A stretch of 32,631 nt of DNA from Patescibacteria group bacterium. Lineage in GTDB: Bacteria > Patescibacteriota > Minisyncoccia > Phycocordibacterales > BOKC01. This document shows, in pieces, positions 2,035 through 20,227 of the stretch. The DNA lies in contig JBBTWE010000001.1 in the NCBI GenBank assembly GCA_038062955.1, forward strand, positions 519,640-552,270, given 5' to 3'. Position numbers and translations under genes: made by a program. Each line of letters starts with the position of its first letter. Positions within the stretch are counted from its first letter, which is position 1. The notes beneath the pieces were generated by a model, which was given only the letters and a program-made list of their open reading frames with translations, searched no databases and was not told the DNA's origin.

Positions 2035-2057
2035 GATGGTAAGGATTTCGTACGGGA

Positions 2058-3869: not shown

Positions 3870-4760
3870 TTATAGATCTTTTTCTGCGTCTAAGAATACA
3901 TCTATATTACCATTTAATACACTTTCGACATCACTTGTTTCAACATTTGTTCTGTGGTCTTTTACCATTTTGTACGGATGCATAACGTAAGACCTTATCT
4001 GGCTTCCCCATTCAATATCAGTGGTCTTTGAAACGTACATTTCTCCTTCTTTACTGATTCTTTCTTTCTCCAACGCATGAAAAATTTTCCCACGGAGAAT
4101 TTGCATGGCTTTTTCTTTATTTTGGGCTTGAGAACGCTGATTTTCGGAGTGAGCAGCCAAATTTGTTGGAATATGCACCACCCTCACGGCCGTTTCTCTT
4201 TTGTTAACGTTCTGTCCACCGGGGCCACTTGATCTTGAGAACTCAAGTCTAATTTCTTTGTCCGGAATTTCGAGCTCGGTCACCTTATCAAATTTTGGAA
4301 TAACTTCGACAAGCGAAAAAGAAGTGTGACGGAGTTTCTTCGCGGAGAATGGAGAGACGCGGACCAAACGATGGACCCCGGACTCGTTTTTTAAAGTTCC
4401 ATAAACATTTTTGCCACTTATTTCAATTGTGACGTTTCTAAATCCCCCGTGATCGTTCTGGTGTTCATGCACCAGAGAAACAGACCAGCCCTGCTTTTCT
4501 ATAAATTTGTAATACATTTCCAAAAGCATATGAGAAAAATCTTCAGCATCGTCTCCGCCTGCACCTGAAAAAATACTCATGATAGCATCACCTTTATCGT
4601 ATCTTCCGATGCCATCTTTCTCTAGCTTAAGATCATTGTATTCTTTAACAATTTTTTGGGCATGATCCTTGTTTTGCCAAAACGAGGCGTCAGCCATATC
4701 ACGCTCCAACTCTAATATTCGAGCTAGAATCTCTTCACTTTTGTTTTTCCTTTCTTTCAT
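3870..4760 (-). CDS. prfB: Peptide chain release factor 2 (short form, single ORF)
   Basis: 296 aa. SPF tripeptide (RVSPFS) marks RF2. GGQ motif in SGPGGQNVN. RF-1/PCRF domain order. No upstream frame-0 ORF ending in CTT TGA was found. Confidence 0.93.
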   Translation of the reverse strand: MKERKNKSEEILARILELERDMADASFWQNKDHAQKIVKEYNDLKLEKDGIGRYDKGDAIMSIFSGAGGDDAEDFSHMLLEMYYKFIEKQGWSVSLVHEHQNDHGGFRNVTIEISGKNVYGTLKNESGVHRLVRVSPFSAKKLRHTSFSLVEVIPKFDKVTELEIPDKEIRLEFSRSSGPGGQNVNKRETAVRVVHIPTNLAAHSENQRSQAQNKEKAMQILRGKIFHALEKERISKEGEMYVSKTTDIEWGSQIRSYVMHPYKMVKDHRTNVETSDVESVLNGNIDVFLDAEKDL

Positions 4761-4876
4761 CCCGTACGAAAGTAGGACACGGACTGAATAAATTATCCTT
4801 GCCCTATTTTAAAGTTAAATAATAAATTCAATGTTCCTGATTACATTCCCGCATGGTGTCCGTGACTTCGTACGGG
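4761..4876. mobile_element. MITE-like palindromic insertion E1, abutting the prfB start codon
   Basis: Imperfect terminal inverted repeats cccgtacgaaagtaggacacggac (4761-4784) and gtccgtgacttcgtacggg (4858-4876). Flanked by direct repeat ttcat (4756-4760 and 4878-4882), which is ATGAA on the coding strand. No ORF inside. Confidence 0.5.
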
Positions 4877-4974
4877 ATTCATATTCGCGTCCTGATTATA
4901 TAAGAAGATGTTGGATTTTAAAAATGAGATAAAGGGCATTAACCCTTTGATCCGTCTTCGCTCGCGGATCATGG

Positions 4975-5272: not shown

Positions 5273-5540
5273 GCCGTTGTAGCTCAGTTGGTAGAGCACG
5301 TCATTGGTAAATCAAATTGCCCTTCATTTTGGAAACATAGTGATGAAGCCCGAATTACGGTTAAAGTCCATGCGAGTGGATAAGACCGTGGCGAAAGAGT
5401 CGCCCGAACGACTGACAAGGGACGCTAAATCAAAAGGATATGCGTAAGATACAGTCTAACCCTTTTATAAGTCGGTTGCGACGAAACTAAGGTATATGTG
5501 AATGACGAGGTCTCCGGTTCAATCCCGGACAACGGCTCCA
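5273..5540 (+). tRNA. tRNA-Thr(GGU) interrupted by a 192-nt insert in the anticodon loop; CCA encoded
   Basis: Exon 1 (5273-5308) is GCCGTTG TA GCTC AGTTGGTA GAGC A CGTCA TTGGT. Exon 2 (5501-5540) is AA TGACG AGGTC TCCGG TTCAATC CCGGA CAACGGC T CCA. Joined, they give a canonical cloverleaf with every stem Watson-Crick and anticodon loop TTGGTAA. Confidence 0.85.
5309..5500 (+). ncRNA. Putative group I intron within tRNA-Thr(GGU), inserted between positions 36 and 37
   Basis: The 5' exon ends in U5308 and the insert ends in G5500. A P1-like hairpin GGT|AA-ATCAAA-TTGCC puts a U.G wobble at the 5' junction. Further helices: CTTCAT 5322-5327/ATGAAG 5343-5348, ACGG 5357-5360/CCGT 5386-5389, TCCA 5367-5370/TGGA 5377-5380, GGCGA 5390-5394/TCGCC 5400-5404. 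CTAAGG lies 8 nt before the 3' junction. No ORF inside. Not confirmed by a covariance model. Confidence 0.5.
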
Positions 5541-5602
5541 TTTTAGGAGCTAGGCAATTATAGGCTCTAGGCACTAGGAAAAAATTTGGTAAATATACAA
5601 TA

Positions 5603-5623
5603 AAAAAAATGCCGATGTAGCTC
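5603..5623 (+). repeat. Orphan duplicate of the 5' end of tRNA-Thr(CGU) plus its upstream A-tract
   Basis: aaaaaaatgccgatgtagctc at 5603-5623 versus aaaaaattgccgatgtagctc at 5722-5742. Only the first 13 nt of the tRNA are duplicated; no cloverleaf follows. Confidence 0.6.
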
Positions 5624-5662
5624 CCCAGTAGTATAAGCTCGAGTACTCGCTTAACTACGGGG
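5623..5662. repeat. 40-nt palindromic unit of the CCCGTAG...CTACGGG family
   Basis: ccccagtag (5623-5631) pairs with ctacgggg (5655-5662). Inner helices are aagc/gctt and cga/tcg. It resembles the nested unit gtcccgtagtgaaagc-ttcg-cttctactacaggac at 19564-19598. Confidence 0.5.
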
Positions 5663-5729
5663 CAGGCAGTAAGACTTTATAACTAAGTCGTCATTTTTTT
5701 GTTCTGATAGAATATGAGAACAAAAAATT

Positions 5730-5802
5730 GCCGATGTAGCTCAGTTAGCAGAGCACCACTTTCGTAAAGTGGGGGTCGACAGTGCAATTCTGTCCATCGG
5801 CT
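5730..5802 (+). tRNA. tRNA-Thr(CGU) with non-canonical D- and T-loops
   Basis: GCCGATG TA GCTC AGTTAGCA GAGC A CCACT TTCGTAA AGTGG GGGTC GACAG TGCAATT CTGTC CATCGGC T. All stems are perfect. The D-loop has AG where GG is expected. The T-loop is TGCAATT, with G at position 55. CCA is not encoded. Confidence 0.85.
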
Positions 5803-7651: not shown

Positions 7652-7743
7652 AAGAGCAGATTTAAGATTCTAGATATACGATTTAAGATTTAAATACAAT
7701 AAAAAATCCGGGGGCTCCAAATGTGGAAGTTCTTATTATTTTA

Positions 7744-13400: not shown

Positions 13401-13533
13401 GGGATGTGATAGCGATTTCTAATTTAAATATCAGATTTATGATTTAAGATTTAAGATTTTTTCACTTCTTGATCTTTGATTTTTAAATTTGTCATGCTTC
13501 GTGCTTCAAATTTCTGTTCCTTATTATACTATT

Positions 13534-18362: not shown

Positions 18363-18376
18363 AATAAATTAGGATG

Positions 18377-18463
18377 TTAGAATAATTAGAGGTATTAGAA
18401 GAATTAGGTTAGTTTTATTTTGAATTTATTTGCTAATTCCTCTAGTGCCTCTACTTCCTCTAA
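18377..18463. repeat. Imperfect long inverted repeat built from TAGAGG-like units (pilT-pilC spacer)
   Basis: ttagaataattagaggtattagaagaattagg (18377-18408) versus the reverse complement of gctaattcctctagtgcctctacttcctctaa (18432-18463). About 24 of 32 positions are complementary. Confidence 0.4.
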
Positions 18464-18481: not shown

Positions 18482-19543
18482 TTAAATCAGTCTTTCGAGA
18501 GTTTTAATATTATTGGCATACCTGTACGCTGTTTCTGCGGTAATTGAACCATTTCTAACAAGCTCTACTAAAGAAGTATTTAGATCCACCATACCAAGCG
18601 AAGAACCTGTTTGGATCATTGTGTCTATTTCATGAATTCTATTCTCCCGAATGATATTTGCCACTGCCCCAGTATTTATTAAAAGTTCACATGCTGGAAT
18701 CTGTCCACCGGAAATTTTTGGAACCAACCTTTGGGAGAAAATACCAGAGAGACTGCTTGCAAGCTGAACCCTTATCTGACTTTGCTGTCCAGATGGAAAA
18801 GCGTCGACAATTCTTTCAATGGTTCTTGAGGCGCTATTAGTATGCAAAGTTGAGAAAATCAAATGTCCGGTTTCGGCGGCGGTTACGGCAGTTGAGATAG
18901 TTTCATTATCTCTCATTTCTCCAAGCATAACCACATTGGCGTCCTGTCTGAAGACATTTTTTAGACCACTGTGAAAATCGACTGTATCAGCGCGAACTTC
19001 TCTTTGATCAATAATGGACTTTTTTTCTTTGAAAATATATTCAATCGGATCTTCAATGGTAATGATATATTCGCTTCTTTTTTGATTTATAATCTCAATC
19101 ATTGAAGCCAAAGTGGTGCTTTTACCTTGTCCAGCTGGTCCCACCACAAGGAAAAATCCTTGCTTCTTTTCTGTAAAACTCTCTAAAATTGGTGGTAGAT
19201 TAAGCTCTTGTATGGTTTTAATTTTTTCTGGAATATGACGCAAAGCAATTCCAATAAGACCTTGCTGAAAATAAACATTTCCTCTAAACCTCTCTTTGTG
19301 GTTATGACTGTATGCAAAATCAGTTTGCTTGAGATCGATGAATCTTTTCTTATTCTCAACATTTAGTATCTCGTCCAAAATTCCATAAATATATTCTTTT
19401 GTCACAACAGAATTGCTAGAGATCGGCATTAAATTTCCGTTTCGACGGATGATAGGCTGTCTGCCTTCTCCCAAATGTAAATCTGAACCACCCTCATTTA
19501 GAAGGATAGTTACTAAATCAATTAACTCTTTTTTAAAATTCAT
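18482..19543 (-). CDS. pilT: Type IV pilus retraction ATPase
   Basis: 353 aa. N-terminal GGSDLHL, Walker A GPAGQGKST, and the His box TLHTNSA. The size and absence of an N-terminal GspE-N domain fit PilT rather than PilB. Confidence 0.95.
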   Translation of the reverse strand: MNFKKELIDLVTILLNEGGSDLHLGEGRQPIIRRNGNLMPISSNSVVTKEYIYGILDEILNVENKKRFIDLKQTDFAYSHNHKERFRGNVYFQQGLIGIALRHIPEKIKTIQELNLPPILESFTEKKQGFFLVVGPAGQGKSTTLASMIEIINQKRSEYIITIEDPIEYIFKEKKSIIDQREVRADTVDFHSGLKNVFRQDANVVMLGEMRDNETISTAVTAAETGHLIFSTLHTNSASRTIERIVDAFPSGQQSQIRVQLASSLSGIFSQRLVPKISGGQIPACELLINTGAVANIIRENRIHEIDTMIQTGSSLGMVDLNTSLVELVRNGSITAETAYRYANNIKTLERLI

Positions 19544-19687
19544 CCCGTAGTGAAATTTCAGGTCGTCCCGTAGTGAAAGCTTCGCTTCTACTACAGGACT
19601 ATCCTGGAATATTCTTTTGATAAAAACTAAAACTTTCTATTACTTATATTCTAACAAATTATTTGCAACCTGAAATTCTACTACGGG
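19544..19687. mobile_element. MITE-like palindromic insertion E2, abutting the pilT start codon
   Basis: Terminal inverted repeats cccgtagtgaaatttcaggt (19544-19563) and acctgaaattctactacggg (19668-19687), 19 of 20 complementary. Flanked by direct repeat attcat (19538-19543 and 19688-19693), which is ATGAAT on the coding strand. Contains a nested 35-nt palindrome at 19564-19598. Confidence 0.5.
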
Positions 19688-19712
19688 ATTCATCCATTCA
19701 GCTCTCTCCATT

Positions 19713-20111
19713 CTACCTCGGTTTATGCTCTTCGGCTATTCGAATAACTTCCGCCGCCACTTCTGATGGAATCAGAGCCGCTTTTACAATATAACCGTTC
19801 ATACCCAGTTTTTGAGCACGATCAATTTCACTCGATTCACCTTGATTGGTAAGCATAATCACAGCCGCGAGAGGTGCTAATTTTTCTTTTCGGATAGTAT
19901 TTAGAAGCTCTAAACCGTCCGGATGAGGCATTATCACATCAAGAACTATCGCATCAGGACTTAATCCTTCCCGAAGCTTGCTAAGGGCCGTCTCACTGCT
20001 AGTTAAAGAAACAATCTCGTGACCGAGATTTTTAAACTTAGTTTCATACATATTTAGCAAGAAACGGTCATCGTCCACCATCAAGATTTTATATTTTTTT
20101 GTTTCAGTCAT
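19713..20111 (-). CDS. Single-domain CheY-like response regulator
   Basis: 132 aa. Receiver-domain acidic pocket (MVDDD), phospho-acceptor context VLDVIMP, and the conserved Lys in YIVKA. No output domain. Confidence 0.9.
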   Translation of the reverse strand: MTETKKYKILMVDDDRFLLNMYETKFKNLGHEIVSLTSSETALSKLREGLSPDAIVLDVIMPHPDGLELLNTIRKEKLAPLAAVIMLTNQGESSEIDRAQKLGMNGYIVKAALIPSEVAAEVIRIAEEHKPR

Positions 20112-20133
20112 AAATTTAGTTGGATTAGAAGGT

Positions 20134-20209
20134 TAGAGGAATTAGAGGTACTAGATTATTTTAACATATCAAACTTATTTTTCTTTTCCTACCTCCTCTA
20201 ATACCTCTA
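20134..20209. repeat. Imperfect inverted repeat of TAGAGG-like units (pilB-regulator spacer)
   Basis: tagaggaattagaggtactag (20134-20154) versus the reverse complement of cctacctcctctaatacctcta (20188-20209). About 17 of 21 positions are complementary. Same unit type as 18377-18463. Confidence 0.4.
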
Positions 20210-20227
20210 TTTTACTAACTTCTCTAG

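Follow-up and report, generated by a model that had tools for sequence, protein, structure and literature searches.

A 144-nt hairpin that stands at the start codon of a pilT-like ATPase gene in a Patescibacteria group bacterium is very probably a non-autonomous mobile element of the MITE kind (miniature inverted-repeat transposable element), i.e. a 'stealth' piece of hairpin DNA that is mobilised in trans and belongs to a family confined to Patescibacteria. It lies in a stretch of 32,631 nt (NCBI GenBank assembly GCA_038062955.1, contig JBBTWE010000001.1, positions 519,640 to 552,270 of the forward strand; hereafter the window), and it is apparently a member of a widespread and undescribed family of mobile hairpins of the Patescibacteria (candidate phyla radiation, CPR). 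An earlier note on this DNA had proposed a mobile palindromic family, inserted independently at the start codons of pilT and prfB with both open reading frames (ORFs) left intact, and a large family of this kind was indeed found. The present reading is carried by the anatomy of the element, its target duplication, the classes of target, the polymorphic distribution of multiple copies and the use of the right-hand ATG by the gene. While small mobile elements are usually kept out of genes, the family described here sits at the first codon of essential genes across an uncultured radiation. The parts of the pilT copy are as follows.

19543..19688, minus strand: pilT element in its family anatomy, T + CCCGTAG...CTACGGG + A, 146 nt
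19688 (T) and 19543 (A, shared with the pilT ATG), minus strand: terminal bases of the element, assigned by lineage comparison
19668..19687, minus strand: left arm, 5' strand of the outer stem (P1), CCCGTAGTAGAATTTCAGGT; the arm type recurs in loci L067, L108, L080 and others
19544..19563, minus strand: right arm, 3' strand of P1, ACCTGAAATTTCACTACGGG, with the family-typical A.C/G.U asymmetry relative to the left arm
19565..19599, minus strand: nested 35-nt palindrome, GTCCTGTAGTAGAAGCGAAGCTTTCACTACGGGAC, at the position of the conserved 3' hairpin of the family
19689..19692, minus strand: left copy of the TGAA duplication, preceded by the original start-codon A at 19693
19539..19542, minus strand: right copy of the TGAA duplication, which with the element A (19543) rebuilds ATGAA, the working pilT start
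19640..19693, minus strand: upstream ORF of 17 codons, MNPVVEFQVANNLLEYK and stop, running from the left ATG copy into the left arm
19704..19709, minus strand: GGAGAG, a Shine-Dalgarno-like motif 10 nt 5' of the left ATG copy
18482..19543, minus strand: pilT-like ATPase gene (T2SSE/PilT ATPase, 353 aa), beginning at the right-hand ATG

Read on the minus strand, the pilT locus has the order GGAGAGAGCTGAATGG - ATGAAT (19693-19688) - CCCGTAGTAGAATTTCAGGT (19687-19668) ... ACCTGAAATTTCACTACGGG (19563-19544) - ATGAAT (19543-19538) - TTTAAAAAA, so that a core of 144 nt (19544-19687) with 20-nt terminal inverted repeats is enclosed between two copies of ATGAAT. The length is the one given in the earlier note, whose figure of 19 complementary positions out of 20 holds only if a G.T is counted, the arms having 18/20 Watson-Crick pairs and one G.T wobble; with the flanking AT included, the inverted repeat measures 22 nt (91%). 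The nested palindrome that the note had described is present (19565-19599) and constitutes the 3' hairpin, to which a duplicate of the outermost 12 bp of P1, closed by a GCGAAGC mini-loop, has been added; it appears in the predicted RNA fold of the element (-59.8 kcal/mol, z = -6.9 against shuffles), and hairpins such as GUCC-GCAA-GGAC and UUCGC-GGAA-GCGAA take its place in relatives. The 17-codon ORF opened by the upstream ATG was likewise found (19640..19693), its counterparts across the family ranging from 4 to 48 codons without conservation of length. The native start of pilT is the right-hand ATG (19543), and the nearest PilT orthologues (54-55% identity) are element-free and start at the aligned position (MDYKSEL...). 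Upstream, where the response-regulator gene ends with a stop codon at 19713-19715, the GGAGAG motif represents the original pilT ribosome-binding site, now ~160 nt away from the working ATG.

The ATGAAT pair, which the earlier note gave as a 6-bp direct repeat, is not a target duplication of that length; family-wide data resolve it into a 4-bp TGAA duplication plus a T...A pair belonging to the element. ATG-associated junctions have the form [ATGNN]T^CCCGT...ACGGG^[ATGNN] (^ marks a boundary; 82 cases, plus 46 in which the sixth base of the gene is also T), and their left and right repeats covary (ATGGA/ATGGA, ATGTA/ATGTA, ACGAA/ACGAA; also ATCAA); since the repeat varies jointly on both sides, it is derived from the target. 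Copies with C/G ends show the junctions N^TTGA^C-CCCGT...ACGGG-G^TTGA-C and N^TATG^C...G^TATG (N variable), and where such copies occupy A^TGAA (L258, L278) the working start has been turned into GTGAA. These junctions and conversions define the element as Y-CCCGT...ACGGG-R and the duplication as 4 bp, and they imply that the first base of the rebuilt start codon (the terminal A, or a G that yields GTG) comes from the element. On this comparison of sequences, the ATGAAT repeat reads as a composite of the 4-bp duplication TGAA and the element-borne terminal T...A pair. Duplications of 6 bp, of 5 bp, or of a 2-bp 'GA' with AT-extended repeats fit the ATGAA copies but fail for the C/G lineage and the GTGAA conversions, and ATGAG+T, ATGAC+T and GATAA+C are incompatible with the extra T having arisen as a P nucleotide. 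The transcription start as left boundary of the duplication was excluded as well, as the internal operon genes pilT, rplB and rplD are also hit.

Pattern scans of 185,579 species genomes recovered several hundred relatives, essentially all of them from Patescibacteria. The two-sided pattern ATGAATCCCGTA-N(103-133)-TACGGGATGAA, for which we estimate ~0.5 chance matches in the genome collection, matched 95 stretches, all in Patescibacteria-type genomes; a scan for the A-type right arm alone gave 112 distinct right ends, and at least 132 B-type copies were obtained with both arms specified and the flanks free. The hosts comprise Wolfe-, Nomura-, Yanofsky-, Zambryski-, Wildermuth- and Doudnabacteria, Paceibacterota, and metagenome-assembled genomes (MAGs) labelled Saccharibacteria. 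Carriage by phages was ruled out, as the two-sided pattern had no match among 2.9 million viral contigs. Three arm subfamilies, A (CCCGTACGAA), B (CCCGTAGTAGAA; includes the pilT copy) and C (CCCGTTAGAG), have one architecture in common, with copies of 115-146 nt and arms of 12-22 nt: the outer stem has 12-20 bp, the first five of them invariant and those that follow covarying; GGGA comes 3' of the left arm, and further inside are GTCGAA and a centre rich in AT; the 3' hairpin, whose stems covary and whose loops are stable, ends 1-2 nt short of the right arm. In an RNAalifold analysis of 39 diverse A and C copies, 14/14 outer-stem pairs were kept, 5/14 with double compensatory changes. Across the window, Rfam models reached threshold only for tRNAs, the best matches on the two elements (pilT and prfB) having E >= 0.58, far below gathering scores; a known RNA family, ribozyme, riboswitch or intron was excluded in the lack of an Rfam match at gathering or permissive thresholds. 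In the literature, no description of the CCCGT hairpin family was found, literal arm sequences included. A group of B-type copies in Saccharimonadales/Saccharibacteria-labelled MAGs (L059, L092, L124) carries in the right arm a GGAGG, 11 nt before the working ATG, that pairs with CCUCC of the left arm; this subfamily may be adapted to hosts that use Shine-Dalgarno sequences.

Insertion sites were surveyed with the flanks left unconstrained, and the placement of copies proved not to be random, the outcome that the earlier note had named as fatal to its view being random positions of the palindromes. Among the A-type right ends, 108/112 (96%) abut a start codon (106 ATG, one GTG, one TTG), with ATGAA found 58 times and ATGGA 30 times. 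Among the B-type matches listed, to which the B-type counts of this paragraph are limited, 64/65 copies with T/A ends (the pilT type) directly precede an ATG; in 55 of them that ATG begins an ORF of 60 codons or more, and another 6 are the upstream partners in tandem arrays. The C/G-terminated B-type copies (n=64) divide into 26 at TATG start codons (11 forward, 15 reverse), 22 at TTGA within TTGAC(A), 14 elsewhere and 2 that abut an ATG with only a short ORF. At 18 of the 22 TTGA sites a TANNNT -10 box lies 16-18 nt downstream, against control rates of 6.5% for all TTGANN and 14.5% for intergenic TTGANN (p = 2e-18), which identifies them as genuine promoters. The targets fall into two classes: the T/A lineage occupies almost only A^TG(R)(A) starts, and the C/G sister lineage TATG starts and TTGA(CA) -35 boxes. 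Strong specificity for start codons, or selection there, had been suggested from two copies, and the association with start codons is borne out by these numbers; as for the proposed target ATGAA(T), the start codon stands and the exact motif does not, being A^TG(R)(A), with TATG and TTGACA -35 boxes in the sister lineage. The N-termini of the downstream ORFs are canonical (TopA, EF-G, LepA, BipA-like GTPase, GAPDH, RecR, SSB, MurG, Ddl, L2, L4, Adk, PilC, PilT, RF2). Intergenic ATGRA in the same loci belongs to gene starts in about half of the cases (1128 starts vs 1138 non-starts, ~50%), so the observed 85-96% exceeds what a 5-mer target combined with lethality inside genes would give. Within each sequence cluster, target class and orientation are uniform. 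Annotation can profit from this, every copy being the mark of a genuine start codon or -35 box in organisms whose gene starts and promoters are otherwise guessed.

Signs of movement are spread across the family. Identical 142-nt copies occur at unrelated genes of one genome (identical or near-identical copies: two in L091, and L138), Wolfebacteria NORP133 contains clusters of copies that are at least 85% identical, and tandem arrays of two or three elements with a common ATGAAT motif were found in L056, L099 and L133. Filled and empty orthologous sites were observed between related species (80-93% amino-acid identity) at fusA, rplB, rplD and other genes. Sister species have some insertions in common, with conserved arms and diverged interiors, and a U-A pair has been exchanged for C-G between the orthologous fusA copies of L165 and L235. 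Two loci, L161 and L230, no longer have the left ATG copy, so that the element adjoins the upstream stop codon while the gene remains, from which we conclude that only the right copy is indispensable; left copies are also frequently mutated (AAG, AGG, ACG). For 98/112 A-type right arms a left arm lies within 200 nt, and none lies farther than 203 nt. Over 350 copies, with 2.1 Mb of DNA around them, included none longer than ~200 nt and gave no linked transposase or recombinase gene. Long CCCGT...ACGGG pairs were rejected as autonomous copies: they are two small elements, chance pairs inside ORFs (L102, L268) or the duplication in L299. The latter (L299:1715-5105) is a 3.4-kb segment bounded by ~200-nt inverted duplications, i.e. 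an inverted segmental duplication that itself bears small copies, which disqualified it as an autonomous copy. Each of its duplications holds a 68-nt short C-type form, ATGAGT-CCCGTTAGAGAA...TTCTCTAACGGG-ATGAGC, and a further CCCGTTACCTGCCTGCCG hairpin.

Taken together, these observations point to the following course of events. The pilT copy inserted at A^TGAA with a 4-bp duplication of TGAA; the terminal A of the element and the right TGAA rebuild ATGAA, the complete pilT ORF beginning directly after the element, and the old ATG and its GGAGAG site stay upstream, where the ATG now opens the 17-codon ORF into the left arm. The split signal is always restored by whichever copy of the duplication lies next to the promoter or gene, so that insertion is tolerated even in essential genes and can be inherited vertically. 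Mobilisation would be effected in trans by an unlinked enzyme, either a transposase of DDE type that cuts with a 4-bp stagger or a recombinase that uses a circle with a target-matching junction (...ACGGG-A-TGAA-T-CCCGT...). The conserved internal architecture would serve mobility rather than host regulation: it recurs in the -35-box copies and in TATG copies of either orientation, and the 'regulatory role' entertained in the earlier note is not needed to account for the conserved structure, because the -35-box copies keep the same architecture. The elements would then point to a trans-acting mobiliser with very short and very specific targets, which could be of practical interest.

The second intact copy in the window, a 116-nt relative at prfB (4761-4876, between ATGAAT at 4882-4877 and ATGAAA), is placed as at pilT, and a short remnant lies near pyrG.

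4760..4877, minus strand: prfB copy (A-type) of 118 nt, T + CCCGTACGAAGT...ACTTTCGTACGGG + A, at the start codon of the short RF2 gene (3870-4760)
4878-4881 and 4756-4759, minus strand: TGAA duplications of the prfB copy
4895..4922, minus strand: promoter-like TTTAAA-16 nt-TATAAT, ending 12 nt 5' of the left ATG copy of prfB
2045..2057, minus strand: solo A-type left-arm remnant of 13 nt, TCCCGTACGAAAT, 10 nt 5' of the pyrG ATGAAA and after the ftsX stop codon

In a covariance model the prfB copy scored 67.7 bits and the pilT copy 31.7 bits on the gene-sense strand (16.4 bits antisense), and these two were the only intact copies that it detected in 62 kb, made up of the window and flanking loci. 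The predicted hairpins of the two copies have stabilities of -40 to -60 kcal/mol. The window belongs to a Patescibacteria genome from Hainich groundwater, and all assemblies of its population have both elements. Strain-level empty alleles at the pilT and prfB sites were ruled out, all Hainich groundwater and Logan contigs being filled (a pilT site without the element would read GGAGAGAGCTGAATGGATGAATTTTAAAAAA), and the prfB site is identical across all Hainich assemblies. The 13-nt arm near pyrG, for which we estimate a chance match in the window at ~0.001, is probably a decayed third copy at another start codon. The RF2 encoded at 3870-4760 (minus strand) has only 296 aa and aligns to solved RF2 structures from about residue 70, its residues 12-49 also matching the region just past the usual frameshift site; neither an upstream frame-0 leader nor a CTT TGA frameshift site is evident. 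The L168 genome encodes a similarly short RF2 that likewise bears an element.

The position of the elements raises the question of how translation starts right behind a long hairpin in organisms that largely do without Shine-Dalgarno sequences and are apparently often leaderless. No promoter-like site or Shine-Dalgarno motif was found within or downstream of the pilT copy, which removes an objection that the earlier note had raised to its own proposal, and in our reading the right arms of the main subfamilies lack a TANNNT box at the distance expected of leaderless genes. The left ATG of prfB is preceded by the promoter, so the prfB element should be transcribed as a 5' leader; together with the lack of a promoter in or after the pilT copy, this implies that the elements should be transcribed. 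Shine-Dalgarno-like motifs accompany ~14% of control gene starts and 4/117 element-bearing starts, and a -10 box 6-7 nt before the ATG was found at 36/117 element-bearing starts and as a clear peak in 892 control long ORFs (tiles L056-L350); these sequence patterns suggest that leaderless or Shine-Dalgarno-independent initiation is common in these lineages. Pairing in the outer stem reaches as far as the A and U of the working AUG (first pair A-U in 34/39, G-U in 4/39), and reading from the left ATG or from the upstream gene always proceeds at least 4 codons into the left arm. A translation relay is a plausible model, in which ribosomes coming from the left ATG or the upstream gene would unwind the outer stem and thereby free the right-hand AUG of pilT, in organisms that rarely use Shine-Dalgarno sequences anyway. 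If it operates, Patescibacteria ribosomes would routinely start EF-G, L2, L4, RF2 and TopA directly behind a stable hairpin.

Several observations weigh against the explanation by trans-mobilised, MITE-like DNA. No enzyme was tied to the elements, the only recurrent transposase-like genes being RAYT-like Y1 genes that are flanked by other hairpins, and an autonomous partner with the same ends, as expected of a classical MITE, was not seen in the 8-kb tiles around the elements. The length of the duplication is not fully fixed (minor 3- and 5-bp variants, ATGGAA+T and TGGTA). The enrichment at signals goes beyond that of a 4-5-mer (starts ~50% expected vs 85-95%; promoters 14.5% vs 82%) and is left unexplained by the mechanism; extended target recognition, differential survival or something else could account for it. 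Copies with T/A ends are strongly biased in orientation (47:7), and the gene-sense strand folds slightly more stably, with more G.U pairs; together, the bias and the stability of the sense strand hint at a constraint at the level of RNA or single strands.

Among known systems, MITEs share their anatomy with the elements, which are non-coding and shorter than 300 bp, have terminal inverted repeats and a characteristic 4-bp duplication, and occur as dispersed and polymorphic copies. The Correia/NEMIS elements of Neisseria measure 100-150 bp, have a TA duplication, occupy many intergenic sites and form a hairpin in the transcript. With these the CCCGT elements share the size, the non-coding, multi-copy and gene-adjacent character, long inverted repeats, a short duplication, co-transcription and the hairpin in the transcript; they differ in the 4-bp duplication, in sitting almost only at start codons and -35 boxes, in the end base that rebuilds the start codon, in their Patescibacteria hosts and in that no partner insertion sequence (IS) was seen for them. 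Like the REP/REPIN sequences mobilised by RAYT, they are short hairpins only and never carry their own enzyme, and must therefore be mobilised in trans; RAYT-like genes occur in the same genomes, and the B-type arms contain GTAG/CTAC as REP sequences do. Unlike REPINs, which are extragenic and lack a duplication, they have a duplication and fixed targets. The RAYT-like Y1 (HUH) genes (YHIxNRG ... PNHFHLI; L085:1159-1836, L175:1347-1970, L178, L221:5522-6184, L237, L114) each have flanking GC-rich palindromes of a kind peculiar to the genome concerned, and constitute a separate REP-like system in Patescibacteria. A RAYT/Y1 transposase was excluded as the mobiliser on the unrelated hairpins that flank these genes at the six loci; HUH enzymes are not known to make target duplications. 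IS200/IS605-derived PATEs, which lack both terminal inverted repeats and a duplication and insert 3' of a fixed tetra- or pentanucleotide, differ from our elements, which have long inverted repeats and a two-sided duplication. Elements of the IS1380 family and of piggyBac type have CC(C)...(G)GG ends and a 4-5-bp duplication, and we regard the likeness as a lead, drawn from the general description of the ends and not from arm sequence, no IS1380-like gene or long copy having been found. The attC sites and Xer-integrating elements are comparable as imperfect palindromes (~60-140 nt) with asymmetric bulges, a short core shared with the target and tandem arrays; in the CCCGT family there is no integron platform and no dif-like target, the ends are YCCCGT...ACGGGR without GTTRRRY/RYYYAAC cores, and the copies lie scattered among housekeeping genes. 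Rickettsia palindromic elements (RPE) are similarly small, palindromic, mobile and tolerated at essential genes of reduced genomes, but they lie in frame inside ORFs and are translated, whereas duplication of the first bases keeps the CCCGT elements outside the ORF.

Site-specific recombination in place of transposition seems to us rather unlikely, for all that the junctions invite it. Under this scheme a circle junction (right arm + R-NNNN-Y + left arm) would integrate where the chromosome matches a core of 5-6 bp; inverted binding arms around a core are the layout of a tyrosine-recombinase site, each lineage would 'remember' its last target, and those whose core is an abundant and harmless signal (ATGAA starts, TTGAC -35 boxes) would out-proliferate the others. 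Apart from a short asymmetric centre, the junction ...TACGGG-ATGAAT-CCCGTA... is almost perfectly palindromic, and the target class tracks the terminal pair (T/A with A^TGRA; C/G with TATG, TTGA^C and others). The base that precedes the left duplication is, in T/A copies, invariably identical to the right-terminal base of the element, and the C that follows the duplication in TTGA copies is identical to the left-terminal one; the origin of tandem arrays at hybrid sites, the uniform target class and orientation within sequence clusters and the lack of an autonomous copy fit equally. Yet no recombinase is linked to the elements, the predicted match of the fifth base was present in only 7/11 forward copies of the TATG class (a weak enrichment, in our reading), and the arms of the targets have no similarity to those of the element. 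Moreover, the left copy covaries with the right one rather than keeping the core of the donor, so that under recombination the core would need replacing at each integration. Somewhat related is the broader idea, possible in our view though doubtful, of a new 'signal-regenerating' class of mobile DNA that homes to starts and -35 boxes as the most frequently repeated safe motifs in a streamlined genome, donates a terminal base and relies on a translation relay free of Shine-Dalgarno sequences, with a homology-based memory of the target as a possible part of it; targeting may in that event use homology to the element's own junction (target memory) and not recognition by a protein.

That the hairpins are cis-acting RNAs at the 5' ends of genes (a 5'-terminal stabiliser protecting from 5'-dependent RNases, a translational gate that sequesters the AUG, or a regulator that binds a protein) and were spread by selection we consider improbable. 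Such a function would suit the conservation of the architecture across classes of Patescibacteria with compensatory changes, the extension of outer-stem pairing to the A and U of the working AUG, the GGAGG/CCUCC pairing of the Saccharimonadales-labelled subfamily (L059, L092, L124), the better folding of the sense than of the antisense strand and the retention of orthologous copies between species, and leaderless-type transcripts would start with 4 unpaired nt followed by the hairpin. The same architecture is, however, found in the -35-box copies, which lie upstream of the promoter that they abut, and in TATG copies whichever way they face (11 forward/15 reverse); the genes bearing elements are functionally unrelated, the same genes of close relatives do without one, and no Rfam match was obtained. 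More remote still, and in our judgement highly improbable, is removal at the level of RNA or ribosome, through intron-like excision within the duplicated AUGAA or through a bypass from the left to the right AUG. Translational bypass elements are known from T4 gene 60 and as the byp elements of Magnusiomyces, and the CCCGT elements do have matched AUGAA copies, i.e. identical short sequences at both borders like take-off and landing sites, with a compact and stable hairpin between them, and are tolerated by essential genes. Against this, there is no match to a ribozyme or intron family, the flanks allow no bulge-helix-bulge geometry, the left copy is dispensable (gone in L161 and L230, with the gene kept) and is often AAG, AGG or ACG, and the -35-box copies lie outside any coding context. 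Non-autonomous DNA mobilised in trans is the explanation that we prefer.

Other features of the window include a tRNA-Thr(GGT) at 5273-5540 (plus strand) with a 192-nt intron in its anticodon loop, which was found by ARAGORN only in intron mode and missed by default tRNA scans and Rfam, and for which no group I intron model matched at E <= 1. A little further on, 5592-5623 (plus strand) duplicates 32 nt at 5711-5742, namely the sequence upstream of tRNA-Thr(CGT) together with the first 13 nt of that gene, and is followed (region 5592-5710, plus strand) by a ~47-nt mini-hairpin with C...G ends, CCCAGTAGTATAAGC...GCTTAACTACGGGG, that resembles B-type arms and may, on this resemblance, be a degenerate relative inserted at a tRNA gene. 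AT-rich repeats like ATTAGAGGTATTAGA, both direct and inverted, occupy the intergenic flanks of the response-regulator and pilT genes (18368-18408, 20124-20212), and a second intergenic repeat family, GATTTAAGATTT..., occurs at 308-352, 7653-7697 and 13421-13465.

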